A stretch of 64,000 nt of DNA, from NCBI GenBank assembly GCA_963817285.1, contig CAWFOE010000008.1, positions 123,577 to 187,576 on the forward strand. The letters run 5' to 3'. Of this stretch, positions 8,416 through 46,504 are shown one piece after another. Origin of the DNA: an uncultured Pseudomonadota bacterium (GTDB lineage Bacteria > Pseudomonadota > Gammaproteobacteria > Natronospirales > REEB76). Below the pieces are notes generated by a model, which ran no database searches, was not told where the DNA came from, and saw only the letters and a program-made list of their open reading frames with translations. A program made the position numbers and the translations under genes. Each line of letters opens with the position of its first letter. Position 1 is the stretch's first letter.

Positions 8416-10315
<1,900 letters not shown>

Positions 10316-10395
10316 GGGGTCCGCCGCCGCTAGGCTCCAGGGAGCACAGGCCGTTAGAATACGGTCTTTCCGCTCCAAAACCTATAAGTACACCC

Positions 10396-21754: not shown

Positions 21755-21780
21755 GGACTCATGCTCCTGGTCGTTATGCT

Positions 21781-22869: not shown

Positions 22870-23003
22870 GGCGATGGTCGCGGGTTCGGATGGGATGGCG
22901 GCGCATTCTAGCATCCCGGCTCGGGAGCACAGGCCGGCCGCGGGGCTATGGCATAATTCAATGCCTGCCTACCGGCCGCATAAGAAGCAGACTGAACCCG
23001 CCC

Positions 23004-25083
23004 ATGCCGCAGAAAGACCGCGACATCCTAGTCACCTACGCCCTGCCCTACGCCAACGGCTCCATACACCTGGGGCACCTGGTGGGATATATCTCCACCG
23101 ACATCTGGGTGCGCTACCAGAAGATGTCCGGGCAGGACTGCATTTACGTCTGCGCTGACGATGCCCATGGCACGCCCATCATGCTGAAGGCGCGGGAACT
23201 CGGCATCACCCCCGAGGAGCTGATCGCCGGGGTCAAGGTGGAGCACGAGCGGGACTTCAAGGATTTCCTGATCAGCTTCGACAACTACCACAGCACGCAC
23301 AGCGACGAGAACCGGGAGCTGGCGACGCTCATCTACAAGAACCTGCGGGACGCGAAGCCCAGCCATATCGCGGTACGCACGATCCGCCAGTTCTACGACG
23401 AGCAGGCCACGATGTTCCTGCCGGACCGCTTCATCAAGGGCACCTGCCCGCGCTGCGCCACGCCGGACCAGTACGGCGATTCCTGCGAGAACTGCGGCGC
23501 CACCTACAGCCCGGCCGACCTCAAGAACCCGGTGTCGGTGATCTCCGGCTGCCGCCCGGTGGAACGCGAGTCTGAGCATTACTTCTTCAAGCTCGGCGAC
23601 TTCGACACGATGCTGCACGAGTGGACCCGCGCAGGCCACCTGCACGAGGCCGGTGCACCCGCAAGCTGGATGAGTGGTTCGCCGCCGGCCTGCAGGACTG
23701 GGACATCTCGCGCGACGCGCCCTACTTCGGCTTCGAGATACCCGATGCACCGGGCAAGTACTTCTACGTGTGGCTGGACGCGCCCATCGGCTACATGGCG
23801 AGCTTCAAGAACCTGTGTGCCCGCCGCAAGGACCTGGACTTCGATTCCTACTGGAAGAAGGGCAGCACCAAAGAGGTGTACCACTTCATCGGCAAGGACA
23901 TCATCTATTTCCATTCGCTGTTCTGGCCGGCGATGCTCCAGGGCGCGGGCTTCCGCACGCCCACCGCGGTGTATGCCCACGGCTTCCTGACGGTGAACGG
24001 CCAGAAGATGTCCAAGTCCCGCGGGCACCTTCATCAAGGGCGCGTACATATCTGGATGCGGGCTGCACCCGGAATATCTGCGCTACTACTTCGCCGCGAA
24101 ATTTGGACCGGGCATCGATGACATCGATTTCAATCTGGACGATTTTTCGCAGCGGGTGAACAGGGACTTGATTGGCAAGCTCGTCAACATCGCAAGTCGT
24201 TGCGCTGGTTTCATAACGAAAAAATTTAATGGTGAAATTAATTGCCGGCAGTCTCCATGACTATGGGGCTGAACGAGGCGGATTGAATCCAGTAAAATTA
24301 CTGGGGAACTAAAGTCACCGCGCCGACAACATAGCCCAGGCCTACGAGAATCGGGAATACGGCCAGCGCCATCCGCGAGGTGATGGATGTCGCCGACAGT
24401 GCGAACGGATACATAGATGAAGTAAAGCCATGGGCCCAGGCGAAACAGCACCGGTAGCGACAGACGTTGCAGCACGACCTGCTCCATTGCTTTCAACCTG
24501 TTTAGCCTGTTCATGATCTACTTAAAACCGGTGCTGCCCAAGCTGGCTGCGCAGGTTGAAAATAATTTCCTGGCGATACCTCCTCTTAAGTGGAGCGATG
24601 CCAATTCGCTTCGACCGCTAATGGGCACAAGATCAAACCTTACGACACCCCTGATGGGACGTGTGGATCCTAAACAAGATAGACACCATGGTCGAGTCCT
24701 CCAAGGAAGACCTGGCGAAAACCACTCAGAAGGCATCGAACATGGATCCCATCGCCGCGGAGATCAGCTACGACGACTTCGCCAAGATAGACCTGCGCAT
24801 CGCGCGCATCGTCAAAGCGGAGCACGTGGAAGGCGCCGACAAACTGCTCAGGCTGACCTTGGATATCGGCGAAGGCACACGCAACGTGTTCGCCGGCATC
24901 AAGAGCGCATATACCCCCGAGCAGCTCGAGGGCAAGCTCACGGTGATGGTGGCGAACCTGGCACCGCGCAAGATGAAGTTCGGCATGTCCGAAGGAATGG
25001 TGCTGGCAGCGGGCCCCGGCGGCAAGGACCTGTGGATCCTCGAACCGCATCAGGGCGCGCAACCCGGGATGAAGGTGAAGTAA
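23004..25083 (+). CDS. metG: Methionine--tRNA ligase (about 7 frame slips plus in-frame stops, densest in 24000-24700)
   Basis: '[19 protein letters not shown]', Zn knuckle '[18 protein letters not shown]', 'KMSKSRG'. Anticodon-binding region '[25 protein letters not shown]', '[18 protein letters not shown]'. C-terminal EMAP/Trbp111 domain '[50 protein letters not shown]...[22 protein letters not shown]'. Pieces are spread over three frames. Confidence 0.9.
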
Positions 25084-27180: not shown

Positions 27181-27934
27181 CTCAGGGTTTCTGCGTAGCG
27201 GCCTTGGGTTTGTGCACCAAGGCGTACTGCTGCTCGATGAGCTTGCTCAGTTCCTCGTAGGCATGGCTCCCGCGCGCCCTGCCCCGTTAACCCCGTAGCT
27301 CGGCGTGGCGTTGATGCCGAGCGCTTCGCCATAGGCCTGGCTTCTCGCCACATCGCCGTGGGTGGTGCCCGCCCGCACACAACCCAGGATCGCGCCGGGA
27401 TCTAGGCCCAGTTCCTGCGCATAAGCCTGGAACTTGGCGATGGGGTCGGGGAGTTCAGCCCACTCCTGCTGGCGGGCGTAGAGCAGATCGTGCATGGGCC
27501 AGAAATGCCCGAGGGTACCGGCGCAACGCGCCACTAGGGAAGCCATCATGGCGTTCTTGTGGATGTCCAGGGGGTAATCGAAGAACACGAAGCGCACCAT
27601 GCCGGTGTCCACGTAATCCTTGCGCATCTTCTCCAGCACCGGCTCGAAGGCGCTGCAGGCGGGGCACTGGTAGTCGGCGAACTCGCGCACCACCACGGGT
27701 GCGTCCGCCTGGCCTAGGGACACGCCCACCACGTCCTCCTCGGGCACGAACTGCACCTGAGGCGCATTGGCCGCGGCGGCCTCGGTCTCGGCGCTCTGCT
27801 CCGCCGTCCCTGCCCGGCCACGGATGATGAGGATGCCCGTATAGACGATGGCGACGATCAGGCAGCGCTATGCCTCCGTAGAGCCAATAGCGGGAGCGAT
27901 CGGGCGGAACGGCCTTGTCAGCTGGCTTCTGCAT
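27181..27934 (-). CDS. DsbA-family thiol:disulfide oxidoreductase, membrane-anchored/periplasmic (2 frame slips at about 27255 and 27850)
   Basis: N-terminal anchor 'MQKPADKAVPPDRSRYWLYGGIAL...'. Thioredoxin motif 'FADYQCPACSAF', 'VRFVFFDYPLDIHKNAMMAS', 'GINATPSYGVNG'. The tail 'AYEELSKLIEQQYALVHKPKAATQKP*' is in another frame. Confidence 0.72.
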
Positions 27935-28329
27935 GGCATTGACTCCCCAGGTGTTCAATCCTGAGTGTAATACTCAGGTTAAGTACCCGCCGTGACGGCC
28001 ACGGGCCACCACCCCGTATACATCATAGCGGCCCCTTTAAGCCTCTGTTAATGTCATATTGGCGTCAGACTAACAGTTGTGTAATAAATACTGCCCTTCC
28101 GGGTCTTCCATCATGTGTGGAAACACTGGGTTACGGTCGTGAGGCCGCATCCGAGTGACCCGGACGTCCGTATCTTAAGACGAACCTGCTGCAGGCCGGG
28201 TTCAGCTCGAGATGCGGATGAACCCGCACGGTGAACCGGGCCCCCAGGGGTATTCCGGATCTCCTGGCGGTCCGTGGAGTAATCCGCATCCAACATTTTG
28301 TAACAACCACTCTATAGAGGACGTCTATC

Positions 28330-28593
28330 ATGAATACGACTAAAGTCTCCGGTATCGCTATCGCCGCCGTTGCTGCCAGCCTGTTCGTGCTGGCCCCGCT
28401 CGCCACGGCTGCCGACAGCGCCGCCACCGGCAAGTGCCTGGGTGGCAATTCTTGCAAGGGCCAGAGCTCCTGCAAGAGCTTCGATCACGGCTGCAAGGGT
28501 CAGAACTCCTGCAAGGGCAAGGGCTTCGTGGTGACCACGAAGGCTGACTGCGACAAGGCCGGCGGCAAGTTCGATGCCAAAGGCGGCAAGTAG
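28330..28593 (+). CDS. Sec-signal 6-Cys precursor peptide, BufA2-like (bufferin 6/12-Cys class) RiPP precursor candidate
   Basis: 87 aa. Signal peptide '[27 protein letters not shown]|AD'. Core '[48 protein letters not shown]' with 6 Cys and a duplicated CKGQxSCK module. Lies directly upstream of the DUF692/DUF2063 genes. Confidence 0.85.
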
Positions 28594-28620
28594 CTTTACG
28601 TCATGGCTTGATGATAGAAG

Positions 28621-28655
28621 GACCCGGTCGCTCACAGGCGGCCGGGTCTTTTTTT
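28621..28655 (+). terminator. Intrinsic terminator/attenuator between the precursor and the maturase genes
   Basis: 11-bp stem gacccggtcgc / gcggccgggtc (one G-U pair), 6-nt loop, then T7 (28649-28655). Confidence 0.8.
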
Positions 28656-28691
28656 GAGCGGAAGCGCAACACGACGGGTAGAATTTCCATC

Positions 28692-29546
28692 GTGAGCAAC
28701 AAGACAACAACCCATCGCCGACCATATCTGGGCTTCGGACTCGGCCTGCGCACCGAACACTACGAAGCGATACTGGCGGAGAAACCGCCGCTCGACTGGC
28801 TCGAGATCCTTTCGGAGAACTACATGGTGGACGGCGGCAAGCCGCTCCATTATCTCGATCGCTTCCGCGCCCTCTATCCCCTGGTGATGCACGGCGTCTC
28901 GCTCTCCATCGGCAGCGGCGATCCGCTGGACATGGATTACCTGAAGCGCCTGAAAGCGTTAGCGGCCAAGGTGGAGCCGCGTTGGATGTCCGATCATCTG
29001 TGCTGGACCGGCATCGCGGGCAAGAACCTGCACGACCTCATGCCCCTGCCCTACACCGAAGAAGCGGTAAATCACGTGGCCTCACGCGTGCGCCAGGTGC
29101 AGGACTACTTAGGCAGGCAGATCCTGCTGGAGAACGTGTCCAGCTACGTCACCTATACCCAGTCAGCCATGAGCGAGTGGGAATTCCTCACGGCCATCTG
29201 CGAGGCGGCGGATTGCCATATCCTGCTGGACATCAACAACATCTACGTGAGCAGCCATAACCACGAGTTCGATCCGCGGGAATACCTGCGGGGTGTGCCG
29301 TCGGCGCGAGTGCGCCAATTCCATCTGGCGGGCCACACCTATAACGGCAACATCATCGTGGATACCCACGACCAGCCCATCATCGGTGGCGTGTGGGAAC
29401 TCTACGCCGAAGCGGTGCGCCACTTCGGCCCGGTGTCCACCATGATCGAGCGGGATGCCAACATCCCACCCCTGGCGGAAGTGCTGGCAGAACTGGAACA
29501 GGCACGCGCCATCGCCAACCCTATCCTGAAAGAGAGAGCAGCATGA
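28692..29546 (+). CDS. bufB: DUF692 / MbnB-like MNIO enzyme (bufferin maturase-like)
   Basis: GTG 28692 inferred; the track start 28608 would run through the terminator hairpin. Motifs '[12 protein letters not shown]', 'LEILSENY', 'HGVSLSIGS', 'MSDHLCW', 'LLENVSSY', '[14 protein letters not shown]', 'FHLAGH', 'VDTHD'. Confidence 0.88.
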
Positions 29547-30322
29547 GTGCGCTCCTCGGCCTCGAGAAAGATTTCCAACAGTGCATGCTCAAGAACAACT
29601 TGGACATGCAAGGCCAGGTGGTGAGCACTGCTAAGGCGGATGCAGCCGAGCGGGTGCGCGTTTATGTGGAGGCCTATCGCCTGCGGCTCCTGGAAGTGCT
29701 GCAGGATAACTACACGGGGCTGCATGGACTCTTGGGCGATGACGAGTTCGATCGTCTGGGCCGCGCGTACATAGACGCTCGCCCTTCCACCCATCCTTCG
29801 GTGCGCTGGTTTAGTCGACACCTCGAGGATTTCCTGCGCCACACCGAACCTTACGACACGCACCCTTATCTCGCGGAGATGGCGGCCTTCGAATGGGCCC
29901 AAGGTCTGGTATTCGACGCAGCCGATGAACCCATCGCCGGTCTCGAATCACTGGCCACGGTGCCGCCGGAAGCCTGGGCAGGTCTGCGCTTCAGCCCGCA
30001 CGCGGCGGTGCAGCGGCTAAGCCTGGAGTGGAACGTGCCCCAAGTGTGGCAGACCCTAGAAGCCGGCGAGACACCTGAATTGCAGAAGAGCGAGACGCCA
30101 GCCAACTGGCTCCTGTGGCGGGTGGAACTTCTGACCCACTGGCGCTCTCTGAATGAAGACGAAGCCTGGGCACTCAGCGCCATAGCGGAAGGCAAGAACT
30201 TCGGCGAACTCTGCGAAGGCCTCTGCCAATGGCACGATGCCTCGGAAGTGGCCATGCAGGCTGCGAGTTTCCTGAAACGCTGGATCATGGACGGACTCAT
30301 CACTGGAGTGCATATCGAGTGA
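29543..30322 (+). CDS. DUF2063 protein (MNIO partner, BufC-like)
   Basis: ATGA overlap with the DUF692 stop. '[21 protein letters not shown]', '[11 protein letters not shown]'. Same architecture as the paralogue at 31803..32567. Confidence 0.82.
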
Positions 30323-31227
30323 AATCACACGCTGCTGCCCTGCTCTTCCTGCTTCCGATCATCGCGCCCCTCGCTCATGCTGACACCCCGACCGCTGCCC
30401 CCGACCCGGTGCAGGTGGAATTCACCCCCGGCGATCTCACGGTGAGCCGGGACCAGGTCCTGCAATGGATCCATACGGCTCAGAAGGCCGTGACCCACTA
30501 CTACGGACGTTATCCGGTGCCGGCAGTAAAGATACAGGTGGAAGCAAGACCAGGCCGGCGCGGTAACGCCTCCGGAACCACCTACGGCAGCGAAGACGGC
30601 GCTTTCATCCAGATGGGCATAGGCAGCGTGGTCAGTAACGACGAACTGCAAGCAGACTGGGTCATGACCCACGAGATGGTACATCTGGCTTTCCCGCGAG
30701 TGGCAGAGAACCAGCATTGGATAGAAGAAGGTCTGGCGACCTATGTAGAGCCCGTGGCCCGAGCCCAGATAGGCGACCTCAGCGTAGATTATCTCTGGCA
30801 GGAGACCATCGAAGGCATGCCCAAAGGGCTGCCGGATACTGGGGATAAAGGGCTGGACAACACCGCTACCTGGGGCCGCACCTACTGGGGTGGCGCCATG
30901 TTCTGCTTGCTGGCAGACGTGCAGATACGGGAACGGACCCATAACCGCTACGGCCTGCAGGATGCCCTGCGGGGGATCCTGGCCGCCGGCGGCAACATCG
31001 ATAGTGCCTGGCCCTTGAGCAAGGCTTTTGCCATAGCCGACAAGACTGTGGGGGTCTCGGTGCTGGAAGACTTATACGCCGGGATGAAGGACAAACCGGT
31101 GGACCCGAACCTACCCGCCCTCTGGAAGAAGCTCGGGGTCGCACTGGTGGAAGGCAAAGTGGCCTACGACGATGCCGCGCCTGACGCAGCCATCCGTAAA
31201 GCCATCACGGCTGCCGACACTCAATAA
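30319..31227 (+). CDS. Secreted zinc metallopeptidase-like protein (HExxH ... EEG, gluzincin-like)
   Basis: GTGA overlap with the DUF2063 stop (GTG 30319). Signal peptide '[20 protein letters not shown]|DT'. Motif 'WVMTHEMVHLAFPRVAENQHWIEEGLATYVEP'. Family not recognised beyond the motif. Confidence 0.6.
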   Translation: MKSHAAALLFLLPIIAPLAHADTPTAAPDPVQVEFTPGDLTVSRDQVLQWIHTAQKAVTHYYGRYPVPAVKIQVEARPGRRGNASGTTYGSEDGAFIQMGIGSVVSNDELQADWVMTHEMVHLAFPRVAENQHWIEEGLATYVEPVARAQIGDLSVDYLWQETIEGMPKGLPDTGDKGLDNTATWGRTYWGGAMFCLLADVQIRERTHNRYGLQDALRGILAAGGNIDSAWPLSKAFAIADKTVGVSVLEDLYAGMKDKPVDPNLPALWKKLGVALVEGKVAYDDAAPDAAIRKAITAADTQ

Positions 31228-31246
31228 AAAGGATAGACGATAGAAG

Positions 31247-31278
31247 CGGCAGAGCTCTCAAGGAGCTCTGCCGTTTTT
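31247..31278 (+). terminator. Intrinsic terminator between the convergent peptidase and DoxX genes
   Basis: Perfect 11-bp stem cggcagagctc / gagctctgccg, loop tcaag, then T5 (31274-31278). Confidence 0.8.
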
Positions 31279-31287
31279 CATTCGAGT

Positions 31288-31779
31288 TCAGGCCGTAGGT
31301 TTGAAGCGCGGAAAGAATTTCATCATCAGATAATCGATGGAAAGCTTCCCAGGGCCATACACCAGCGTCACCAGCAGCATCAGCCCCCATATCTTGTGAT
31401 CCTTGAAGGCGGAACCGAACAGCCCCACCCAAAAGCCATCCGGCCAGAGGTCCGGGAAGGAGATCACGCAGATCAGGTTGTACACGAACAGGAAGCCAGC
31501 AGTCAGACGTCCGAAGATGCCGAACGCCAGCAATACCGGTATCACCAGCTCCACTCCAGTGCCGAGATAGGCGGCGAACACCGGCGGCAGGAACGGCACG
31601 TGATAGGTGTTGGTGAAGAGATCGATGGTGGAATCCATGTTCGCGATCTTGGCCAGGCCAGCGCGGAAGAAGGCGTTGGCCACCCACAGACGCAAGGCGA
31701 GATCCACCAGTGGCTTGGCGTATTCCAGCCAGCCCACCAGCATGCAGTACAGACCCTGGATCTTGGTGAACATCTTCAT
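31288..31779 (-). CDS. DoxX family membrane protein (BufD-like position)
   Basis: Intact 163-aa ORF with four TM helices ('LALRLWVANAFFRAGLAKI', 'YLGTGVELVIPVLLAFG'). Last gene of the minus-strand cluster. Confidence 0.78.
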   Translation of the reverse strand: MKMFTKIQGLYCMLVGWLEYAKPLVDLALRLWVANAFFRAGLAKIANMDSTIDLFTNTYHVPFLPPVFAAYLGTGVELVIPVLLAFGIFGRLTAGFLFVYNLICVISFPDLWPDGFWVGLFGSAFKDHKIWGLMLLVTLVYGPGKLSIDYLMMKFFPRFKPTA

Positions 31780-31802
31780 CTGACTCTCCCCCTGGGTAGG
31801 TC

Positions 31803-32567
31803 TTAATTGTGGAAACCGGTGAGTATCTCTTCTCGCACCAAACCAGCGAACGTCTTCTCCACGTCAAACCCGGGCTCTGCTTCGAGAGCTGCGAGGCAGG
31901 CTTGCTCGAAGGTGTCGGCATCTATCACCCGCTGCAAGAACTCATGTTCCCCGGCACTCAATCGTCGCATATATACATCCAGAGCGGGTCGGGCTAACAG
32001 TACATACTCGCCGGGCAAGTCTATATCGAGCCCGGTCTCAGGCGCCGGGGAACGGCAATACTCCCAGAGTGTGAGCACCGGGAAGCGGGAGCGTAACACC
32101 CGCACCGCCGGTTGCACCCGGAATCGCAGCTTGGGCTGAAGCTCGCTCGGCAACGCGGCCAAGGCCGCGAGATCCATCGGTATGTGTCCAGGTGCGAGAG
32201 CTGCCTGAAGATTGTGCCATTCCAATTCGGCCACATCAGCCAGATAAGCCAGGCTGCTTGCCGGCTCGTAGCTACGGATGAACCCTGCGAACTGGCCACC
32301 GTAATCCTGGATGTTCCCGGAACGGGAAGGCTCGGTCTTGAGATAGATCGCAGCCATGGCGGTGAAGAACGCCTCTCCTACCAGGCGCTCGGTGGCGGGG
32401 TACACGTTCTTGAGAGCGCCCACGAGAGCGCTCTGCATGTTGTGGCGATAGACCTGCAGGCGTTGCGCGGCAGTGAGTCCGTTGCCGCGTACCGGCAGCT
32501 CTCCGGTCGGCTTGCCGGTGAGGCCTCGGCCGAGACAGCTTTGCAGTTCAGGCAGCAGCATGGCCAT
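31803..32567 (-). CDS. DUF2063 protein (MNIO partner, BufC-like)
   Basis: 'TAAQRLQVYRHNMQSALVGALKNVYP', 'YLADVAELEWH'. 20-nt overlap with the upstream DUF692 gene. Confidence 0.82.
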   Translation of the reverse strand: MAMLLPELQSCLGRGLTGKPTGELPVRGNGLTAAQRLQVYRHNMQSALVGALKNVYPATERLVGEAFFTAMAAIYLKTEPSRSGNIQDYGGQFAGFIRSYEPASSLAYLADVAELEWHNLQAALAPGHIPMDLAALAALPSELQPKLRFRVQPAVRVLRSRFPVLTLWEYCRSPAPETGLDIDLPGEYVLLARPALDVYMRRLSAGEHEFLQRVIDADTFEQACLAALEAEPGFDVEKTFAGLVREEILTGFHN

Positions 32568-33409
32568 GCATCAGCAGTGCATCCGCCTTGGCGGCTTCTG
32601 TGATCAGTTCCGGCAAGGCCGGGAGTTCGCTGTCCCATTCCAGGAGAGTGGGCTTCGGGCCCAGCGCACCCAGCGCATAGGCATACAATTCCCAGACGGC
32701 CTCTTTCACCGGACGATCATGGGTATCGATGAGAAGTTCGACTCCATCCACGCGTTTCTCGGCGTGACCCGCCAGATGGATCTCCTGCACATCCTGGGCG
32801 GGGATCGAGTCTATATAGTGGCGTGCATCGAAGCCATGGTTCACGGCGCTCACGTAGATGTTGTTGACATCCAGCAAGATGCCGCAGCCGGAGCGGGCCG
32901 CCACTTCCCGCAGGAACTCCCATTCAGGGATGGCCGAGTGTTCGAACTCGAGATAGCTGGAGACATTCTCGATGAGTATCTGGCGACCCAGGTGATCCTG
33001 CACTTCGGCGATGCGGGCCGTCACATGCTGCAAAGCTTCTTCAGTGTAGGGCAGCGGCAGGAGGTCATGGAAATGGACGCCGCCGGTGGAGACCCAGCAG
33101 AGATGCTCGGACACGAGCATGGGTGAGAACCGGGCTACGGCAGCCTTGAGCTTCGCGAGATGTCCGTGATCGAGCGGATCCACGGAGCCGAGGGAGAGGC
33201 CTACGCCGTGCAGACTCAAGGGATAATCCACGCGCACCCGATCCAGCTCAGCGACCGGCGCGACCGCCCTCGGCGAAATAATTCTCGCTATGTACTTCCA
33301 GCCAGGCGACCGCTGGGCGGTCCTCCAGGAGAACCTGCACATGGGGAGCACGCAGGCCTATCCCCGCGCGAGCGGAGATGGGCTGCGGTGTATGGGTGGG
33401 CGTAGGCAT
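32548..33409 (-). CDS. bufB: DUF692 / MbnB-like MNIO enzyme (bufferin maturase-like) (frame slip at about 33260)
   Basis: N-terminus '[45 protein letters not shown]' in the 33248..33598 frame. The rest carries 'HGVGLSLGS', 'VSEHLCW', 'LIENVSSY', '[14 protein letters not shown]', 'IHLAGH', 'IDTHD'. Confidence 0.86.
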
Positions 33410-33420
33410 AGGCCTCAAGC

Positions 33421-33714
33421 TTAGCCGTTCTCCGGTGCATGTTTCAGGAGGGCGAGGTTGCCGCCGCCGATCTTCCGGCACAGACCCTTGGGTACCAGGA
33501 GGAAGGAATCCCACTCCCGGTCCTGTTGGCTGGTCGAAGCGCAGGAGTTGTATAGCGTCTGGCAATCGTTCTGCTGAGCCGCGGCTACGCCGTAACACTT
33601 CTCCTGGGGCATGGGTCGATTGGCTTCCACGCCGTAACCCACGGCAGCCCCGGCGGTACCTGTGACCAAGCTCGCGACCGCGCCATAGATGGCTAATCTG
33701 ACTTCGTTACGCAT
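33421..33714 (-). CDS. DUF2282 4-Cys precursor peptide, BufA1-like, divergent second copy
   Basis: 97 aa. N-terminal hydrophobic region '[20 protein letters not shown]'. Core '[49 protein letters not shown]' with C-x10-C-x6-C-x20-C spacing. Confidence 0.8.
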
Positions 33715-33821
33715 CTCGGTAGTCTCCTTGAATGGCTGATGGTTACTTGCGTGGCTCGCAACGAGGACACAAGTTCAGCAGAGACCAGGATGCAGCTGGA
33801 TTTATTACCGGTTTCACCGCA

Positions 33822-33849
33822 GGCCGGTCCCCGCGCTCGCGGGGACCGG
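33822..33849 (-). promoter_or_regulatory. GC-rich stem-loop between the two tandem precursor genes (possible attenuation/processing site)
   Basis: 12-bp perfect stem gccggtccccgc / gcggggaccggc with loop gctc. No U-tract follows on the coding (minus) strand. Confidence 0.4.
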
Positions 33850-33870
33850 CTGGGTAAAGATGGGAGTTAC

Positions 33871-34146
33871 TTAGCCCTTCTTCTTCATAGGAGCGCCCGG
33901 GGTCAGGGAACCACCGGCGATCTTGCTGCACAGACCCTTCGGCAAGTTCACGAAGGCATCGGGCTGGCGGTCTTTCTCCGCGGTGCCGGCACAAGAATTG
34001 CTGGCAGTCTGGCAATCGTTCTTGGCGGCGGCGGCGACGCCGTAGCACTTCTCCTGGGCTACGGGCTTGTCAGCAGCCAGGGCAGATGCGGTGATCAGGG
34101 TGGCGGCGATGGCGGCACCGATAGCGAATTTGATGTCTTTATCCAT
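33871..34146 (-). CDS. DUF2282 4-Cys precursor peptide, BufA1-like, first copy
   Basis: Start at ATG 34146 (GGAGGA RBS upstream). Signal peptide 'MDKDIKFAIGAAIAATLITASALA|AD'. Core '[50 protein letters not shown]' with C-x10-C-x6-C-x20-C spacing. Confidence 0.85.
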   Translation of the reverse strand: MDKDIKFAIGAAIAATLITASALAADKPVAQEKCYGVAAAAKNDCQTASNSCAGTAEKDRQPDAFVNLPKGLCSKIAGGSLTPGAPMKKKG

Positions 34147-34491
34147 GAACCTATCCTCCAAAAGGGTTTGAAAACCGCAGGACTCACATATCAGGGTACT
34201 CGAAACTCGCGGCTCCGGAGGCACCCCAAAAGCCCGTCCCAATGCCTCTTAAGACCCGGTTTAGAGAGATTTGTTACGGTCATGAGGGGGTATGACGCGG
34301 ATTTTACTGGTAAAACACCCCGGACTCGTTATAATGCCCACGAGTTTGACGCGGCGCGACCCGGTCTCAAGTCCCGCAAACCTGTCTCGGCGTACCTCGT
34401 ACTTCCCGATTCCCCTTAGTAAAAAATCACTGCCTGGACCGGCACGACGCTCACTGAGTGTGAGCGCGAGCAGGCGGATCCAGGAGTAAAC

Positions 34492-35790
34492 ATGTCATTT
34501 TCGTCCCTCGGCCTTTCGGCCGAATTGCTGCGTGCTGTCACCGAACAGGGCTATACCGAGCCCACCCCCGTCCAGTCGCAAGCCATCCCCGTGGTCCTCA
34601 CCGGCCGCGACCTGCAAGCCGCCGCCCAGACGGGCACCGGCAAGACCGCCGGCTTCACCCTGCCGCTGTTGCAGCGCCTGCAGGCTGCCCCCGTCCCCCA
34701 GGCGCATAAGCGCCCGGTGCGCGTGCTCATCCTCACCCCCACCCGCGAACTCGCCGCCCAGGTGGGTGAGAGCGTGCCGACTTACGGCAAGTACCTGCGC
34801 TTCCAGTGCGTGACCATCTTCGGCGGTGTGAACATCAACCCGCAGATAGACAAGCTGCGCCGCGGCGTGGACATCGTCATCGCCACACCTGGCCGGCTCC
34901 TCGACCACGTGGAACAGCGGACCATCGACCTCTCCAGGGTAGAGATCCTAGTGCTGGACGAGGCGGACCGCATGCTGGACATGGGCTTCATTCGCGACAT
35001 CCGCCGCATCCTGACGCTACTACCCTCGGGCCGGCAGAACCTGATGTTCTCCGCCACCTTCTCCGATGACATCCGCAAGCTCGCGGGCGGCATCCTGCGT
35101 GATCCGGCCACAATCGACGTGGCACCGCGCAACTCCACCGCCGAGCGGGTGAGCCAGCGAGTCTATCCTGTGGATCAGCACCGCAAGCGCGTACTGCTGG
35201 CGCAGCTCATCAAGGAAGGCGATTGGAAACAGGTGCTGGTCTTCACCCGCACCAAGCACGGCGCCAACCGCTTGGCCGAACAGCTCGCCAAGGAAGGCAT
35301 CCAGTCGTCTGCCATCCACGGCAACAAGAGCCAGGGTGCCCGCACCCGTGCGCTCGCCGATTTCAAACAGAACCGGGTCCGGGTGCTGGTGGCGACGGAC
35401 ATCGCCGCCCGTGGCCTGGACATCGACCAGCTGCCCCACGTGGTGAACTACGAGTTGCCGAACGTGCCGGAAGATTACGTGCACCGCATCGGCCGCACCG
35501 GTCGTGCTGGTAGCTCGGGTGAAGCGGTGTCGCTGGTGGCCGGCCCCGAACGGAGCCTGCTGCGAGACATCGAACGCCTGCTCCGCCAGGAGATACCCCA
35601 GACGATAGTGCCGGGATTCGAGCCGGGCTCGGGTCCCGCGCCGGAAGCGGAGCAGCGTGAGCCCCGTCAGGGCCACGGACAGCGCCGCGGTCATGGCGGT
35701 GGTGGCGGACATCGCAGCGGCCATAGCCGCCCCGGTTCCCGCGACCATGGTCGTAGCAGCGGCCGTCAGCGCAGCAGTGGCAATCGCTAA
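34492..35790 (+). CDS. rhlE: ATP-dependent RNA helicase RhlE (DEAD-box)
   Basis: Q-motif 'GYTEPTPVQ', 'AQTGTGKT', 'PTRELA', 'DEAD', 'SAT', '[10 protein letters not shown]'. Basic Gly/Arg/His-rich tail. Confidence 0.9.
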
Positions 35791-35845
35791 AGACTGAATC
35801 CATCGAATCTGCACGAGTCCACGGACGGGCTTGTGCGGATATCTG

Positions 35846-36436
35846 TCAGCGGGATAGCCTGGCTTCCAAGCGGCTCTTCACTTCCGGCCATTCCTCATCG
35901 ATGACGCTGAAATACACGCTGTCGCGCATGCGCCCCGTGTGGGTCAGCACGTGGCGACGGAAGATACCTTCCTGTTTCGCCCCTATGCGCAGGATAGCCT
36001 CGCGTGATTGCTGGTTGAGCACGTCGGTCTTGAGCTCCACCCTGGCGCAGCCTAAGGTCTCGAAGGCGTAGCGGAACATCAGGTATTTCGCCTCGGTGTT
36101 CACCCGGCTGCGCTGCCAGGCTTGGCCTATCCAGGTGGCGCCTATCTCAAGACGCCTATTCTTCAGGTCCATGTTCATGTAGCGGGTGGAACCCACCACC
36201 TGGCCACTTGCCCGCAAGAGTGTGGCGAATGGCATGGCCGAGCCCCGCTCCTGATCATCCAAGACAGCCTGCACGTAGGCCCGCATCTCTGCAGGATCAC
36301 GCACCGGCGTCGGTATCCACTGCCAGAGTCTCGGATCCAGGCCCACGGCACAGAGTCCGTCCAGATGCGCGAGTGACAGGGGTTCGAGACGCACTTGGGC
36401 GCCTTCGAGGACGGGAGGGATGGGACGCCCACTCAT
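35846..36436 (-). CDS. GNAT family N-acetyltransferase (RimJ/RimL-like)
   Basis: Intact 196-aa ORF. 'RLEIGATWIGQAWQRSRVNTEAKYLMFRYAFETLGCARVELKTD..NQQSREAILRIGAKQEG'. Confidence 0.72.
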   Translation of the reverse strand: MSGRPIPPVLEGAQVRLEPLSLAHLDGLCAVGLDPRLWQWIPTPVRDPAEMRAYVQAVLDDQERGSAMPFATLLRASGQVVGSTRYMNMDLKNRRLEIGATWIGQAWQRSRVNTEAKYLMFRYAFETLGCARVELKTDVLNQQSREAILRIGAKQEGIFRRHVLTHTGRMRDSVYFSVIDEEWPEVKSRLEARLSR

Positions 36437-36466
36437 GTCAGGCAGATATCCAGCCGATGTACAGGG

Positions 36467-37123
36467 TCAGAAAAGCCCACCGGGCATCACTTTTTGAGAG
36501 GTGAAATCCGCGAGGTCTTTCTCGTTGCTGAGACAGATGCCGATCTCTTTCAGCAAGCCGCTCTGCAGGCGATAGGCCCAGCCATGCAGGGTGAGCGGCT
36601 GACCACGCCGCCAAGCGTCTTGCACGATGGTGGTACGCGCCACATGCAGAGTCTGCTCGATCACATTCAGTTCACAGAGGCGGTCCACCCGCGTCTCCTC
36701 GTCTGGCCGGGCGGCGATGTCATCGGAGTATTTCTCAGCTACGTCTTTCACATGCCTGAGCCAGTTGTCGATGAGACCCAGGGAAGCACCACGCCAGGCG
36801 GCCTGCACACCGCCGCAGCCGTAATGGCCGCAGACGATGACGTGCTCCACCTTGAGCACATCCACCGCATACTGCAGCACTGACAAGCAATTGAGGTCGC
36901 TATGCACTACCACGTTGGCCACGTTGCGGTGCACGAAGACTTCGCCGGGCATGAGGCCGACGATCTCATTAGCCGGCACGCGGCTGTCGGCACAGCCTAT
37001 CCAGAGGTAGCGCGGCGACTGTTGCTGGGCCAGGCGCTTGAAGAAATCCGGCTGCTCGCGATTGACGCCTTCGGCCCAGGCGCGATTGTTGTCGAAGAGT
37101 TCCGGGAGTTTTTGCATGTTCAT
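36467..37123 (-). CDS. can: Beta-class carbonic anhydrase
   Basis: 'LWIGCADSRVPANEI', 'GEVFVHRNVANVV', 'HVIVCGHYGCGGV'. Confidence 0.88.
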   Translation of the reverse strand: MNMQKLPELFDNNRAWAEGVNREQPDFFKRLAQQQSPRYLWIGCADSRVPANEIVGLMPGEVFVHRNVANVVVHSDLNCLSVLQYAVDVLKVEHVIVCGHYGCGGVQAAWRGASLGLIDNWLRHVKDVAEKYSDDIAARPDEETRVDRLCELNVIEQTLHVARTTIVQDAWRRGQPLTLHGWAYRLQSGLLKEIGICLSNEKDLADFTSQKVMPGGLF

Positions 37124-37145
37124 CCCCGTGCAGCAGTCGCATAAG

Positions 37146-37883
37146 TCATTGGTAAGCCGCAGCCCCGGCAGCGTAACTGAAAGAACCCAGGAAAGCAGTG
37201 GCCCGGCTATCGGTCGCCAGCGCCTTCTCTATCTCATCGGCCCCGGGTGCTGGAGCGGCTCCTGCGGGCATTGGTGCGCAGACACCACAATCTTGGGGCC
37301 ATTCCGCCCACAACATGGCCACCTTGCCGTTCTTCGCCGTGACGTACATGAGTATATAGGCGGTGTAGTCCTCTGCGAGTCCCGGACCCTGCATGATGTC
37401 CAGAGACAGGGTCTCGGTGGGAACCTTCTGGGTATAGAACCTCAACAAGCCCTGGGTGCCACCTAGTTGCCAGGATCTCTCCTGTTGCAATTCCATGGGG
37501 GTTGCCCGCGCCGCCATCAGCTGTCGGCCGTATACCTGCAAGACTGAATCCGCCACCTGATCCATATCCGGCACTTTATGGTTGGAAGCGAAGAAATCCT
37601 CGGTATAAGCCCGGTAATACTCCCCGGGATTAAAGGGCGACATGAAAGCCACGTAGGAGATGTTCGCCGGATAATTCTCCTCCAGCTGCACATAGCGGTA
37701 ATCATCGGCGCCTTGCCGGAGCGGGATGCTGACCGTGAACCAGCCCCGCTTATCGTGGAATACACCCGCGCTGACGCTGCCCTGGAGCGCCCCAGAGATG
37801 ACCACAGGCCCGCTAGATTGCGGTGCATCGGCACAGGCTCCGACGAGTACGGTGATAGCGAAGACGTAAGCGATCTTATTCAA
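37146..37883 (-). CDS. Hypothetical lipoprotein
   Basis: TTG start overlapping the DUF1272 stop (TTGA). Lipobox 'FAITVLVGAC'. Intact 245-aa ORF. No family recognised. Confidence 0.5.
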   Translation of the reverse strand: MNKIAYVFAITVLVGACADAPQSSGPVVISGALQGSVSAGVFHDKRGWFTVSIPLRQGADDYRYVQLEENYPANISYVAFMSPFNPGEYYRAYTEDFFASNHKVPDMDQVADSVLQVYGRQLMAARATPMELQQERSWQLGGTQGLLRFYTQKVPTETLSLDIMQGPGLAEDYTAYILMYVTAKNGKVAMLWAEWPQDCGVCAPMPAGAAPAPGADEIEKALATDSRATAFLGSFSYAAGAAAYQ

Positions 37884-38128
37884 GAAGCCTCACCTGCACA
37901 CTTGGAGTTATGGACACGCTTCAGAGAGGCAGGATGTCTCTGCAATGACGAACCGGTGCGGGTCGGGCGTCGGGTCAAGTCGCCGCCACAGTTGGGGCAG
38001 ACGTTGCCGAACCGCGTCCGCGCGCAGTCCTCGCAGAAGGTGCACTCGAAGCTGCAGATCATGGCCACAGAAGAATCCGGCGGCAGATCCCGATCGCAGC
38101 ATTCACAGTTGGGTCGCATCTCCAGCAT
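37880..38128 (-). CDS. DUF1272 zinc-ribbon protein
   Basis: Start taken at ATG 38128. 'MLEMRPNCECCDRDLPPDSSVAMICSFECTFCEDCARTRFGNVCPNCGGDLTRRP'. Confidence 0.7.
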   Translation of the reverse strand: MLEMRPNCECCDRDLPPDSSVAMICSFECTFCEDCARTRFGNVCPNCGGDLTRRPTRTGSSLQRHPASLKRVHNSKCAGEAS

Positions 38129-38145
38129 GGTCCATGCCTCTCGCA

Positions 38146-38760
38146 TCAACCGGACGGCGGTTTGGCAGCAGTCGGCGTCTGGGCCGTGACTGCAGCCGGT
38201 GCAGTCGTCGAAGACGGCGCCAGGAAGATCGGCGCTGGCGGCGTGAGATCCGTGCCATAGAGCCGGTTCAGGCAACGCATGTCCTGAGTGGGATACTCCA
38301 CGAACACGTTATGGGCCGGATCGTATGCCCAGGCAGCGGGGATGCTGTCGAACCATTCTTTGGTATGGTCGTAGTTCACCACCGCCACCACCCGGGACAT
38401 GAACCCGCCGTGCTCCTTGCAGATGCCCATCACCAGTATCTGGTCGTACAGGAGCAACGGGATGCGCTGCACCGCCTGCACCCGCCATGACTGGATCAGG
38501 CCACCTGGTGTGACATTCCGATCTGCGCTCAGGAGGTAATGATCCCCCTCCCACACCAGGGAAAACCCCCAGTCGGCATTGGGATGGGTGGAGTCCACCT
38601 GGATGAGGGCCTGGTCCACCAGCTGGAATGCAGGGAAGACCATATGGGGATCCTTGCCTACATACTGGTTCACATCCCGTGAGACACAGCCAGAGGCCAG
38701 CAGCAGGAGGCCGCAGACGGCGAACAATGATGCATCAGGATGACGGCGAGGGCTTTTCAC
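38146..38760 (-). CDS. Hypothetical lipoprotein with Pro/Ala/Thr-rich C-terminus
   Basis: Lipobox 'LLLLASGC'. Intact 204-aa ORF. Tail 'TPPAPIFLAPSSTTAPAAVTAQTPTAAKPPSG'. Confidence 0.5.
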   Translation of the reverse strand: MKSPRRHPDASLFAVCGLLLLASGCVSRDVNQYVGKDPHMVFPAFQLVDQALIQVDSTHPNADWGFSLVWEGDHYLLSADRNVTPGGLIQSWRVQAVQRIPLLLYDQILVMGICKEHGGFMSRVVAVVNYDHTKEWFDSIPAAWAYDPAHNVFVEYPTQDMRCLNRLYGTDLTPPAPIFLAPSSTTAPAAVTAQTPTAAKPPSG

Positions 38761-40147: not shown

Positions 40148-41935
40148 TCACTTCGGACGTTTGGGTGCATAGAGGTCCGTCACCGTCCCTTCGAACACTT
40201 CCGCCGCCAACATCACGCTCTCGTTGAGAGTCGGATGGGGATGGATGGTGAGGGCGATGTCTTCCGCATTGGCCCCCATCTCGATGGCCAGCGCCAACTC
40301 TCCGATGAGCTCACCGGCGTTCACGCCCACGGTGGCAGCACCGATGAGGCGATCGCTGCCTTCCTCGAACAAGAGCTTGGTCATGCCATCGGTGCGGTCG
40401 ATGGAACGTGCCCTGCCTGAAGCCACCCAGGGGAACACGCCTTTGCCGTATCTGATGCCCTGGGCGTTCGCTTCCAGTTCCGTCAGACCCACCCAAGCCA
40501 CTTCGGGGTCGGTATAAGCCACGGAGGGGATCACGCGCGCATCGAAGAAGCGTTTATGCCCCGCCGCCACTTCCGCAGCGATATGACCCTCGTGGCTCGC
40601 CTTGTGAGCCAGCATGGGATTGCCGATGACATCGCCGATGGCGAAGATGTTGCCTGCGCTGGTGCGCATCTGCCGGTCCACGGGGATGAAGCCCCGCTCG
40701 TCCACTGTGACACCCGCCTTCTCCGCATCCAGCAGTTTGCCGTTGGGTCGGCGGCCCACGGCCACCAGTACACGACCATAGGTCTGGGGTTCAGGTGCAT
40801 TGGCACCCTCGAAGCTCGCCTTGATGCCCTGCTTCGTGGCTTCCAGCTTCGCTACCTTCACGCCAAGCAATATCTGCTCATAGCGCTTCTTGATGCGCTG
40901 CTCCAGAGGGCGCACCACATCCCGGTCTGCGCCGGGGATGAGGGTCTCGGTCAGTTCGACCACCGTGACCTTGACGCCCAGTGCGTCATACACACAGGCC
41001 ATCTCCAGGCCGATGATGCCGCCGCCGATCACCAGCATGCGTTCCGGCAGCTCGGCGAGCTCCAGCGCACCTGTGGAATCCATGATGCGCGGGTCATCCG
41101 GCAGACCCGGGATGCGGGTGACGGAACTCCCGGCGGCGATGATGCATTGCTCAAACTTGATGACAGTCTTCTTGCCATCCTGCTCTGTGGCCAGGTGATG
41201 GGGTCCCAGGAATTTGCCGTAACCCTGCACCACCTGCACCTTGCGCTGCTTGGCCAGCATGGTGAGGCCATCCACGGATTTCTTCACCACCTTGTTCTTG
41301 AAGCCTCTGAGCTTATCCAGCTCGATCTTGGGCTTGGCGAACACCAGACCATTCTCAGCCATGGCTTCCGCATCTTCGATGACCTTGGCTGCATGCAACA
41401 GGGCCTTGGAAGGGATGCAGCCCACGTTGAGACAGACACCGCCCAAGACGGCATATCTTTCCACCAGTACCGTCTGCAGACCCAGATCAGCGGCACGGAA
41501 TGCAGCTGCATAGCCGCCGGGACCGGAACCCAGCACCACCATCTGACATTCGATGTCGTGGGGACCTTTGTATTCCGGCACGTTTGCCGCCGGTACAGGC
41601 GTGGCTTTAGGAGCCTCAGCCCTGGTAGCTTGTGGAGCCGGTGCCACCGCTGCTTTCTGCGCAGCAGTCTTGGGCGCAGCAGCGGCAGCGCCCTCTTCCA
41701 CTTCCAGCGTCAGGACCAGGGTGCCTTCAGAAGCCTTATCGCCCTTCTTGAGCTTCAATTCCTTCACGATGCCGGCCTGGGGCGACGGCACATCCATGGC
41801 AGCTTTGTCGGTCTCCAGGGTCACGAGACCCTGTTCTTTCTCTACCTTGTCACCCGATTTCACCATCACTTCGATGACGTCCACGTCCTTGAAGCCGCCG
41901 ATGTCCGGGACTTTGATCTCGATGACTTTTGCCAT
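40148..41935 (-). CDS. lpdA: Dihydrolipoyl dehydrogenase (E3) with N-terminal lipoyl domain
   Basis: Lipoyl motif 'LVTLETDKAAMDVPSP', FAD 'VVLGSGPGGYAAAFRAAD', redox 'GGVCLNVGCIPSK', 'HAHPTL'-like 'IHPHPTLNE'. Confidence 0.92.
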   Translation of the reverse strand: MAKVIEIKVPDIGGFKDVDVIEVMVKSGDKVEKEQGLVTLETDKAAMDVPSPQAGIVKELKLKKGDKASEGTLVLTLEVEEGAAAAAPKTAAQKAAVAPAPQATRAEAPKATPVPAANVPEYKGPHDIECQMVVLGSGPGGYAAAFRAADLGLQTVLVERYAVLGGVCLNVGCIPSKALLHAAKVIEDAEAMAENGLVFAKPKIELDKLRGFKNKVVKKSVDGLTMLAKQRKVQVVQGYGKFLGPHHLATEQDGKKTVIKFEQCIIAAGSSVTRIPGLPDDPRIMDSTGALELAELPERMLVIGGGIIGLEMACVYDALGVKVTVVELTETLIPGADRDVVRPLEQRIKKRYEQILLGVKVAKLEATKQGIKASFEGANAPEPQTYGRVLVAVGRRPNGKLLDAEKAGVTVDERGFIPVDRQMRTSAGNIFAIGDVIGNPMLAHKASHEGHIAAEVAAGHKRFFDARVIPSVAYTDPEVAWVGLTELEANAQGIRYGKGVFPWVASGRARSIDRTDGMTKLLFEEGSDRLIGAATVGVNAGELIGELALAIEMGANAEDIALTIHPHPTLNESVMLAAEVFEGTVTDLYAPKRPK

Positions 41936-41962
41936 GGTATCTCTCGGGGTCTTTAAGCCGGG

Positions 41963-42343
41963 TCAATCCCAGCGGTTAGCATTCTTGGGGAAACCGGGGC
42001 GCTGTACACGCACCACACAGAAGCGCTGACCCGTGGGAGCTTCCATCACCACCCAGCGGGGTAATTCCTTGAATACCTTGGCACCCAGCTTGGTGAGGCG
42101 GGCTACTTCGGCAGGGATGTCGTCGGTCTCGATGTCGATATGGACCCGACTCTCATGCTCCACACGCTGCACTTGCACGATGAGCTCATCGGGCGGTGTC
42201 TCCAGCATGCGGTAGTGGTCACGGCTGCCTGGGTGAGCGAGATCCACAGGCCTACCCAAGGCCGCGCCCCAGAAGCGGGCAGCGTCGTCCACGTCGCCAC
42301 CCTGGCAATCGATCAGGACGGCACAGAGTCGAGAGTGATGCAT
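41963..42343 (-). CDS. VOC (glyoxalase/bleomycin-resistance fold) family protein
   Basis: Intact 126-aa ORF. 'RVHIDIETDDIPAEVARLTKLGA' pattern. Lies between aceF and lpdA. Confidence 0.65.
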   Translation of the reverse strand: MHHSRLCAVLIDCQGGDVDDAARFWGAALGRPVDLAHPGSRDHYRMLETPPDELIVQVQRVEHESRVHIDIETDDIPAEVARLTKLGAKVFKELPRWVVMEAPTGQRFCVVRVQRPGFPKNANRWD

Positions 42344-42366
42344 GGCTCAACCCTCACACATAGATA

Positions 42367-43647: not shown

Positions 43648-43659
43648 GGCGTGCTCTCC

Positions 43660-46329: not shown

Positions 46330-46504
46330 GGCAAAACCTTGTGGTTCGTCATTCAGGGCATCGCGGGGGACGGCGGGAATAAACAGCCCTCCGCCGCGGG
46401 GTTTTTGCGGTCTCAAGCATCGGGCCGGCACGCTATCGCGCCTTCCGGCGGGGCTCCAAGCCCTATATCATCACTGTCCGGATTCCCTAGAACGTCGGGC
46501 ACCC

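Follow-up and report, generated by a model that had tools for sequence, protein, structure and literature searches.

The closest described relative of the locus analyzed here is buf1ABCD of Caulobacter vibrioides (CCNA_03363-03366), in which a gene for a four-Cys DUF2282 precursor with a Sec signal peptide is followed by genes for an MNIO/DUF692 enzyme, a DUF2063 protein and a DoxX protein (PMC11626156). The conversion of the central cysteines to 5-thiooxazoles, copper binding and a copper-stress phenotype are known only for this model, in which DoxX is dispensable (PMC11626156). A DoxX gene is frequent in bufferin 1 clusters though not obligatory, and control by an ECF sigma factor and an NrsF anti-sigma factor is common, not universal. 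The gig (gold-induced genes) operons of Cupriavidus metallidurans and Legionella pneumophila are metal-induced and consist of the same four genes, DUF2282-DUF692-DUF2063-DoxX (PMC11626156). Oxazolin/Hvf and fontiphorin-type 'captophorin' clusters also combine an MNIO with a DUF2063/RRE partner and often a DoxX protein, and make Cys-derived copper-binding heterocycles (PMC11252979, PMC13097082). A published survey of MNIO enzymes noted the existence of BGCs with tandem precursor genes and suggested multiple substrates for some MNIO enzymes (PMC12452194). Experimental tests of tandem-precursor bufferin BGCs have not been reported in the bufferin and MNIO literature cited here.

The window, a 64,000-nucleotide stretch of DNA from an uncultured soil gammaproteobacterium, contains a bufferin 1 ("gig"-type) gene cluster on the minus strand at 31288-34146, in the order bufA1a-bufA1b-bufB-bufC-doxX. 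The initial annotation had recognized the gig/bufferin 1 order of precursor(s), DUF692, DUF2063 and DoxX genes, and the family assignments all score above curated thresholds. Both precursors match DUF2282/BufA1 (PF10048, cut-off 22.4): BufA1a (33871..34146, 91 aa) with 78 bits (E 5.5e-22), and BufA1b (33421..33714, 97 aa), which is diverged from it, with 71 bits (E 8.3e-20). The bufB gene (32548..33409, ATG at 33409, stop at 32548-32550) encodes the MNIO/DUF692 maturase and is split between two frames in this assembly. The first frame (33248-33409) matches positions 1-37 of the NCBIfam MNIO_BufB profile NF050167 and the second (32548-33291) positions 37-261 (341 bits, cut-off 310). The DUF2063 partner BufC (31803..32567, ATG at 32567, 254 aa) matches PF09836 with 78 bits (E 5.2e-22, cut-off 27.2) and, weakly, HvfC over residues 33-237. 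The last gene, doxX (bufD; 31288..31779), encodes a 163 aa DoxX-family membrane protein (PF07681, E 3.2e-15, 57 bits, cut-off 23.6) that also matches the HvfX family with 53 bits. As described earlier, 11 nt separate the bufA1b stop from the bufB ATG, and bufB overlaps bufC by 20 nt. Among GTDB representatives, which do not include the species of the window, the best BufB match is 84% identical and comes from a soil Gammaproteobacteria MAG.

The locus is an ordinary bufferin 1 cluster and adds a further member to a family already known. Assignment to the oxazolin type is not borne out, as BufB reaches only 232 bits with the HvfB model NF003818 (cut-off 360), and the precursors are of the DUF2282 type without EGKCG repeats, whereas captophorin clusters have EGKCG-repeat precursors. 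The nearest solved structure to BufB, 3BWW, nevertheless belongs to the oxazolin/Hvf-captophorin group. Pfam's old label for DUF2282, "integral membrane protein", was set aside in favor of the experimentally based precursor role (PMC11626156). The cluster differs from Caulobacter buf1 and the gig operons in having two precursor genes instead of one. Unlike Caulobacter buf1, it has no adjoining sigF/nrsF genes within the window; no ECF sigma/NrsF (Sigma70_r2, DUF1109) proteins were found among the window ORFs scanned.

As in Caulobacter, the genome carries a second bufferin operon, buf2, without doxX. In Caulobacter the two operons are at separate loci, whereas here they lie side by side and are convergent. 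The neighboring operon pointed out in the initial annotation occupies 28330-31227 on the plus strand and begins with bufA2 (28330-28593), whose product matches NCBIfam BufA2 (NF050166) with 80.4 bits (cut-off 60). The adjoining bufB2 (28692-29546; NF050167, 385 bits) and DUF2063 gene bufC2 (29543-30322; PF09836, 62 bits) place the operon in the bufferin 2 (BufA2/Buf_6/12Cys) class. Unlike Caulobacter buf2, it ends with an additional, unannotated gene (30319-31227) for a 302 aa protein of catalytic-domain size only, which has no Pfam or NCBIfam match and no PDB relative by sequence. In this protein H118-E119-x-x-H122 and E137, which fit the gluzincin zinc site of HEXXH plus a downstream Glu on a thermolysin-like catalytic fold, are invariant across 30 homologues, and its AF2 model (pLDDT 90.9) matches M61/M1 catalytic domains (7xyo, E 1.8e-6, TMq 0.53), suggesting an M1/M61-like peptidase. 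The buf2 arrangement is conserved in four related loci (L008, L011, L012 and L089); a fifth, L010, keeps only the peptidase-like gene, at a contig end. Between this gene and doxX is a 14-bp hairpin (I5, 31244..31276) with 93% complementarity and a 5-nt loop, followed on the plus strand by a T-run. Hairpin I5 is likely a terminator for both strands, even though the consensus terminator scan did not call it.

The window contains four copies of a promoter-like motif, GTAAYA-N16/17-GTCT, where 0.08 would be expected, and all four are upstream of bufferin genes on the correct strand. P1 (GTAACA-N16-GTCT, 34252..34277, minus strand) lies 106 nt upstream of the bufA1a ATG; across seven species both of its boxes are conserved and the spacer sequence is variable. 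P2 (GTAATA-N17-GTCT, 33782..33808, minus strand) lies 68 nt upstream of bufA1b. The remaining copies precede the buf2 operon on the plus strand (28081-28106 and 28300-28326). P1 resembles the sigmaF site of C. crescentus, GTAACC-N16-CGAA (PMC3511200), sharing its GTAAC -35 box and N16 spacing but differing in the -10 box (GTCT instead of CGAA). This enrichment and placement suggest that the motif copies may act as promoters. Scans of 31000-34600 for consensus sigma-70 promoters and intrinsic terminators returned nothing, and an Rfam scan of the same interval gave only two chance-level matches. Between P1 and bufA1a is a leader block, GCCTCC-N12-TTCGAGTA (34197..34222, minus strand), of which the window and all close relatives carry a single copy per locus, in each case upstream of bufA1a.

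The intergenic region between the two precursor genes folds strongly (z = -6.1). It contains a perfect, G+C-rich 13-bp hairpin (I6, 33823..33850, minus strand) that is kept in eight sequences, with four pairs preserved through compensatory changes on both sides. A P2-type motif follows the hairpin in L008, L009, L023, L089 and L091-L093 as well. Hairpin I6, which shares homology with the beginning of bufB (repeat D1, 80%), could be an attenuator or a transcript-stabilizing 3' structure. Because a conserved hairpin and a second promoter-like motif separate the precursor genes, transcription of the cluster may be more complex than that of a single simple unit.

The two precursors are 50% identical over 88 aa (BLASTP E 2e-31). 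Direct reading of the translations confirmed that both have four cysteines with the spacing C-x10-C-x6-C-x20-C. Both also have a charged N-terminus and, by a simple hydropathy method, a putative signal peptide, with 11-aa peaks of 2.29 (A1a) and 2.13 (A1b) within the first 20 residues and values of at most 0.97 elsewhere. Small-x-small sites are found at the ends of the predicted signal peptides (ALA/AD in A1a, AGA/A in A1b), and that of BufA1a is of the Sec type (MDKDIKFAIGAAIAATLITASALA before AD). The bufA1a ATG start and GGAGGA ribosome-binding site are common to its orthologues. Compared with BufA1a, BufA1b has its own N-terminal extension, a Trp that is conserved, and a tail that is hydrophobic instead of Lys-rich; these features could give the two products different metal preferences or partners. 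No PDB relative of BufA1b was found by sequence.

The initial annotation regarded the tandem pair as specific to this sequence, which is incorrect. Orthologous A1a/A1b pairs are found in the GTDB MAG SMAG_U2522 (L023) and in metagenome contigs from farmland and elsewhere (L089, L091, L092). The order A1a-A1b-bufB-bufC-doxX recurs in related soil metagenome contigs and one GTDB genome. Six further loci of the 80 scanned contain independent tandem precursor pairs. The locus is thus a case of the tandem-precursor bufferin BGCs of the MNIO survey (PMC12452194), which does not describe the A1a/A1b lineage, its hairpin or its internal promoter-like motif.

It was considered whether bufA1b is a decaying, functionless duplicate that leaves bufA1a as the sole real substrate gene. 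BufA1b is the more diverged copy of the pair, and the closest GTDB relatives (L008, L009, L010 and L012) have the A1a type only, in line with such decay. But the A1b subfamily, while small, is conserved, comprising ten clusters at 76-100% identity. Across species its members are 76-91% identical and retain the four cysteines, the signal peptide and the length (96-97 aa), and the four cysteines are invariant across the subfamily and A1a. The A1b gene always follows an A1a-type gene where the context is known, and bufA1b is preceded by its own ribosome-binding site (AAGGAG) as well as by P2. L023 carries an orthologue of each precursor, with core identities to the window of 93% (A1a) and 91% (A1b), against 62% between the two paralogues. 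Given these orthologues and the invariant A1b cysteines, we conclude that both precursors are maintained, as judged from sequence conservation, and decay of bufA1b is improbable.

The frame slip in bufB near 33260 is real in this sequence, and the initial annotation left open whether it is genuine or an error. The evidence now favors an artefact. Comparison with near-identical contigs shows one extra C on the coding strand at window position 33258, GGTCGCG[C]CGGTCGC. It is absent from five independent contigs (L001-L005; ENA, Logan), which are 98.9-99.8% identical to the window over the operon-region stretches that each covers and encode an intact 287 aa BufB, as do more distant relatives of the same architecture. 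The alignment of the repaired 286 aa BufB with 3BWW, a DUF692 structure (E 6.5e-52), runs through the slip site without a gap. The products of the slip (a 53 aa N-terminal fragment, a 267 aa ORF and a 229 aa gene call) are on record on no other contig. Other genes of the same window are also broken: proS is in four frame segments (profile positions 1-273, 271-330, 349-420 and 421-558), metG in at least four (3-213, 215-337, 336-407 and 538-676) and dcd in two (2-66 and 66-152), and prfC is truncated with loss of its C-terminal domain. One metG slip is an extra G within the codons of the KMSKS motif, in a short G/C-run context like that of the bufB slip. A look-up of proS and metG in other assemblies returned only L088, a 2.4-kb contig identical to the window. 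Five near-identical assemblies without the slip, together with the breaks in proS, metG, dcd and prfC, indicate that an assembly indel is the most likely cause of the slip and that the cluster is most likely intact.

Alternatively, the slip could be a recent mutation private to this strain, making bufB1 a pseudogene and leaving the BufA1 precursors unmodified or served by BufB2/BufC2. The window does represent a distinct strain, differing from the intact contigs by five SNPs and a 3-nt indel over the 3.1-kb operon region, so a strain-private mutation is conceivable. Its SNPs and the 3-nt indel were confirmed by the independent contig L007, which also encodes an identical BufC. Only two indels distinguish the window from L002 and L003 over 29000-38500, so, the slip base aside, the local indel error rate is below that in proS and metG. 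Independent sequence from this strain is limited to contigs L006 and L007 (ERR12035940), neither of which covers the slip site, as L006 stops at 33343 and L007 starts at 32830. The exact repaired BufB of this strain is absent from a collection of 15 billion proteins, and JGI metagenome contigs matched neither variant of the slip site. A second MNIO/DUF2063 pair is present 2 kb away. However, at least eight other frame breaks hit essential or housekeeping genes within the same 64 kb, making an assembly indel the simplest cause. Apart from the slip, bufB has no sign of decay, its repaired ORF being full length and sharing 99.7% identity with intact versions. Service of the BufA1 precursors by the neighboring pair, as raised earlier, is also not assured, since the two substrate-recognition partners, BufC1 and BufC2, share only 24% identity, and the two enzymes, BufB1 and BufB2, 49%. 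We consider a private mutation unlikely. A programmed ribosomal frameshift or transcriptional slippage site regulating BufB output was rejected, and its probability is close to nil, because every relative, at BufB identities between 99.8% and about 50%, encodes BufB in a single frame. Its sole support is the existence of the slip; the slip site GGTCGCGCCGGTCGC contains no slippery heptamer, and a degenerate hairpin (33357-33382) is upstream rather than downstream of it. An assembly indel thus remains the preferred explanation.

Taken together, the locus is very probably an intact two-precursor bufferin 1 BGC with a predicted Caulobacter-like pathway and two putative sigmaF-type promoters, in which the bufB slip is an assembly indel. 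By analogy with buf1ABCD (PMC11626156, PMC3511200), the iron enzyme BufB and its partner BufC would act together on the precursors in the cytoplasm and convert the two central cysteines of each to 5-thiooxazoles. The precursors would then be exported by Sec, their signal peptides removed and the outer two cysteines joined in a disulfide, and the small folded proteins would bind excess periplasmic copper, with DoxX as an accessory membrane protein. Expression is probably driven by a sigmaF-type ECF sigma factor from two similar promoters, one ahead of bufA1a and the other after the hairpin, ahead of bufA1b-bufB-bufC-doxX. This layout would yield more bufA1a transcript than enzyme transcript. 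More tentatively, the A1a/A1b pair could be a natural two-substrate system: a single MNIO/DUF2063 pair would mature both of the diverged metallophores, the hairpin and the second ECF-type promoter would set their ratio, and the convergent buf2 operon, with its gene for an M1/M61-like peptidase, would complete a co-regulated three-bufferin locus.

The locus itself matters little for discovery, as thousands of bufferins exist and tandem precursor genes are already on record. It does offer a caution: where a single slip interrupts an otherwise perfect gene in a metagenome, essential genes on the same contig should be checked before any pseudogenization or cross-complementation is proposed. For bufferin biology, the A1a/A1b lineage is a convenient natural case for asking whether one BufB/BufC pair can handle two different DUF2282 substrates, and the enriched GTAAYA-N16/17-GTCT motif provides a testable entry point to the regulon where, as in this clade, no sigma factor gene adjoins the cluster.

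The buf1 operon comprises five genes on the minus strand (34146 to 31288). The first two encode the precursors BufA1a (33871-34146, 91 aa) and BufA1b (33421-33714, 97 aa). Both match Pfam PF10048 (DUF2282, presently named BufA1) far over the gathering score, with E-values of 5.5e-22 and 8.3e-20, respectively. They share the cysteine spacing C-x10-C-x6-C-x20-C, and each has a charged N-terminus followed by a hydrophobic stretch and a small-x-small cleavage site. The MNIO/DUF692 gene bufB starts 11 nt past bufA1b and overlaps the DUF2063 gene bufC (31803-32567) by 20 nt. The DoxX gene (31288-31779) follows 23 nt later. The C-terminal part of the MNIO alone is assigned to the NCBIfam BufB equivalog (341 bits, cut-off 310), and it was not assigned to the HvfB, MbnB, ApyH or ChrH models in the same search. 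The initial annotation had described the precursor ORFs, their cysteine spacing, the gap, the overlap and the terminal DoxX gene correctly in every element, and its placement of the operon in the bufferin-1 family is right, as judged by family matches and gene order.

In the window bufB is split between two frames: 33248-33409 encodes profile positions 1-37, and 32548-33291 encodes positions 37-261. An exact look-up of BufA1b in ENA assemblies and in public runs assembled by Logan returned six independent contigs, which are 98.9-99.9% identical to the window over the operon stretches that each covers. At the slip site L001-L005 read GGTCGCG-CGGTCGC and the window reads GGTCGCGCCGGTCGC, a difference of one C at 33258. 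The single slip reported initially is thus present in the window sequence but lacking in 5/5 contigs that cover the site, all of which encode an intact BufB of 287 aa. BufB of this length is also encoded by three metagenome contigs with 80% BufA1b identity (L089, L091 and L092). Without the extra base, the window encodes a 286-aa product that differs from BufB of L001-L005 by one substitution and one alanine less at the C-terminus. This product aligns with the DUF692 crystal structure 3BWW without gaps through the slip site (E 6.5e-52).

The slip is very probably an indel introduced by assembly. Both proS and metG are essential single-copy genes, and both are broken in the window. proS (10213-12344, plus strand) falls into four frame segments (profile positions 1-273, 271-330, 349-420 and 421-558), and metG (22833-25080, plus strand) into at least four (positions 3-213, 215-337, 336-407 and 538-676). 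It follows that indel errors must be present in the contig, about one per 6-8 kb. One metG break is an extra G within the KMSKS-motif codons near 24026, and it shares a short G/C-run context with the bufB slip. Two minus-strand genes look like further frame breaks: the profile of dcd (dCTP deaminase, 21187-21784) is split at position 66 between two frames, and the C-terminal domain match of prfC (RF3, 5734-7167) is limited to positions 1-29 of 132. Similar noise is found in the neighbouring operon of the companion contig L001 from the same collection.

A real frameshift private to the strain of the window is improbable, since proS, metG, dcd and prfC are broken as well and the extra C is missing from every near-identical contig over the site. 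Several observations do point toward it. The window represents a genuine separate strain, as its SNPs and a 3-nt deletion are repeated in the independent contig L007, and between 29 and 38.5 kb there are otherwise hardly any indels against L002 and L003. The slip site falls in the gap between the independent same-strain contigs L006 (end 33343) and L007 (start 32830), and the deposited record calls a truncated gene of 229 aa there (P0003). L006, L007 and L088 are short contigs of Logan run ERR12035940; L007 and L088 are 100% identical to the window and L006 differs by one base, so the strain is present in that sample. Programmed frameshifting is excluded in practice because the two-frame layout occurs in no relative.

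The convergent buf2 operon (28330-31227, plus strand) has four genes. BufA2 scores 80 bits (cut-off 60), the second BufB scores 385 bits and the third gene encodes a second DUF2063 protein. Like the Caulobacter buf2 operon, it has no DoxX gene. The fourth gene (30319-31227), which follows bufC2, encodes a secreted protein of 302 aa with no match in Pfam or NCBIfam and more than 7,500 homologues annotated only as hypothetical. In 30 aligned homologues, H118-E119-x-x-H122 and E137 never vary. Its AF2 model (pLDDT 90.9) matches the catalytic domains of M61/M1 gluzincin aminopeptidases (7xyo, E 1.8e-6). The protein may process BufA2. The convergent arrangement, including the 302-aa gene, is kept in L008, L011, L012 and L089; in L010 the contig stops inside the 302-aa gene, short of where buf2 genes would lie. 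This conserved pairing of two bufferin operons, the second with a peptidase-like gene in fourth place, is a modest new point. The initial annotation proposed that buf2 might complement an inactive buf1. Identity is 49% between BufB1 and BufB2 and only 24% between BufC1 and BufC2; complementation is possible but not favoured, and would be unnecessary if the slip is an artefact.

The region 27452-29000, which takes in a DsbA-like gene, bufA2 with its upstream region and the beginning of bufB2, varies between strains. Compared with L001-L003, every 500 bases show roughly 50-110 mismatches and 5-17 gap columns, in contrast to only a few differences over the same length between 29000 and 38500, and the region looks like a recombination tract. 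The DsbA/thioredoxin-like gene (27247-27756, minus strand) is divergent from bufA2, has the same position in L001 and L002, and could be linked to disulfide formation in exported bufferins.

The tandem precursor pair is a trait conserved within its lineage. When every GTDB species was scanned through a single genome, a set from which the species of the window is absent, 80 loci were obtained, the best BufB match being 84% identical (a soil Gammaproteobacteria MAG). Two DUF2282 genes lie upstream of bufB in 7/80 loci, and the MAG SMAG_U2522 (L023) has orthologues of both precursors, so the pair is not specific to this sequence as first thought. Core identity to L023 is 93% for BufA1a and 91% for BufA1b, compared with 62% between the two paralogues (50% overall). 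The duplication is therefore older than the divergence of these species, and neither copy has been lost. A homologue search found ten BufA1b-type clusters (76-100% identity), all 96-97 aa with four invariant cysteines. Their hallmarks are a 14-letter extension, another conserved 14-letter stretch and a GGNLALLK tail where BufA1a has a Lys-rich one. Wherever context is available bufA1b lies past bufA1a and ahead of bufB-bufC-doxX. The nearest GTDB relatives L008, L009, L010 and L012 have bufA1a alone. An unrelated second lineage of tandem pairs (e.g. L034, L050, L059 and L068) shows that such pairs have more than one origin. "BGCs with tandem precursor genes" were already reported in an MNIO survey (PMC12452194); the orthologous BufA1a and BufA1b subfamilies are a modest new point.

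A perfect 13-bp hairpin (33823-33850) lies 3' of bufA1a. It forms a 35-nt direct repeat, 80% identical, with the first codons of bufB (33351-33385). Given this repeat and the 450-467 nt between precursor copies, the duplicated unit consisted of bufA1 and the 5' end of bufB. The hairpin is kept in eight sequences, with four base pairs retained through two-sided changes. It occupies the spacer past bufA1a in L008, L009, L023, L089 and L091; in L010 and L012, where the bufA1-bufB spacer is short, it is made by the first codons of bufB itself. No clear U-run follows it and a terminator scan made no call there. We infer a putative attenuator or 3'-end stabiliser that would raise precursor over enzyme transcript.

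When the 300 nt preceding bufA1a were aligned across seven species, two short conserved boxes emerged, GTAACA and GTCT, with 16-17 nt of variable sequence between them. The 64-kb window contains four matches to GTAAYA-N16/17-GTCT (0.08 expected; 0/100 shuffles reached four), although the bufA1a and bufA1b sites informed the pattern, so independent confirmation is limited to the two bufA2 sites. Each of the four precedes a bufferin gene and is on its coding strand: before bufA1a (34252-34277, minus), past the hairpin and before bufA1b (33782-33808, minus), and before bufA2 (28081-28106 and 28300-28326, plus). The motif is found at the same positions in relatives, including the more distant L039, L045, L049, L075 and L087. 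The conserved hairpin, together with the promoter-like motif internal to the operon, is a modest new point. The motif resembles the sigmaF site established by experiment in Caulobacter crescentus, GTAACC-N16-CGAA (PMC3511200), which drives both bufferin operons in that organism (PMC3511200; PMC11626156). The window ORFs that were scanned include no ECF sigma or NrsF gene; the putative regulator, if it exists, is encoded elsewhere. The copy at 28300-28326 ends 4 nt ahead of the bufA2 ATG (28330), so a transcript starting from it would have little or no leader, paralleling the -7 transcript start reported for Caulobacter CC2907.

Two other conserved elements lie upstream of bufA1a. GCCTCC-N12-TTCGAGTA (34197-34222, minus), between the promoter-like motif and bufA1a, occurs once per locus in close relatives only, with a variable spacer, and could act as a second promoter or an operator, or form a leader structure. 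About 120 nt (about 34327-34446) between the DEAD-box helicase gene (34492-35790, plus) and the bufA1a promoter region are nearly invariant in seven species whose BufB is 71-84% identical to the query, with the pattern TGCCGGTCCAGGC ... GACTTGAGACCGG.TCG.G.C.C.TCAAACT ... GCATTATA. Rfam gave no match above chance for this stretch, which may be the helicase promoter or 5' leader.

The wider surroundings are ordinary housekeeping genes, namely a MoxR-DUF58-TgpA (transglutaminase-like) set (178-4130, plus) and pyruvate/2-oxoacid dehydrogenase E3, E2 and probably E1 (40148-46467, minus). The long frame of the DUF58 gene matches profile positions 3-37 only and may also be frame-broken.

Judged by the families of its genes and their order, the cluster is expected to function as Caulobacter buf1 does, a system in which DoxX is dispensable for modification. 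By analogy, BufB and BufC would place 5-thiooxazoles on the two central cysteines. The precursors would be exported via Sec, the signal peptide cleaved and a disulfide formed between the outer cysteines. The folded product would then chelate copper in the periplasm.
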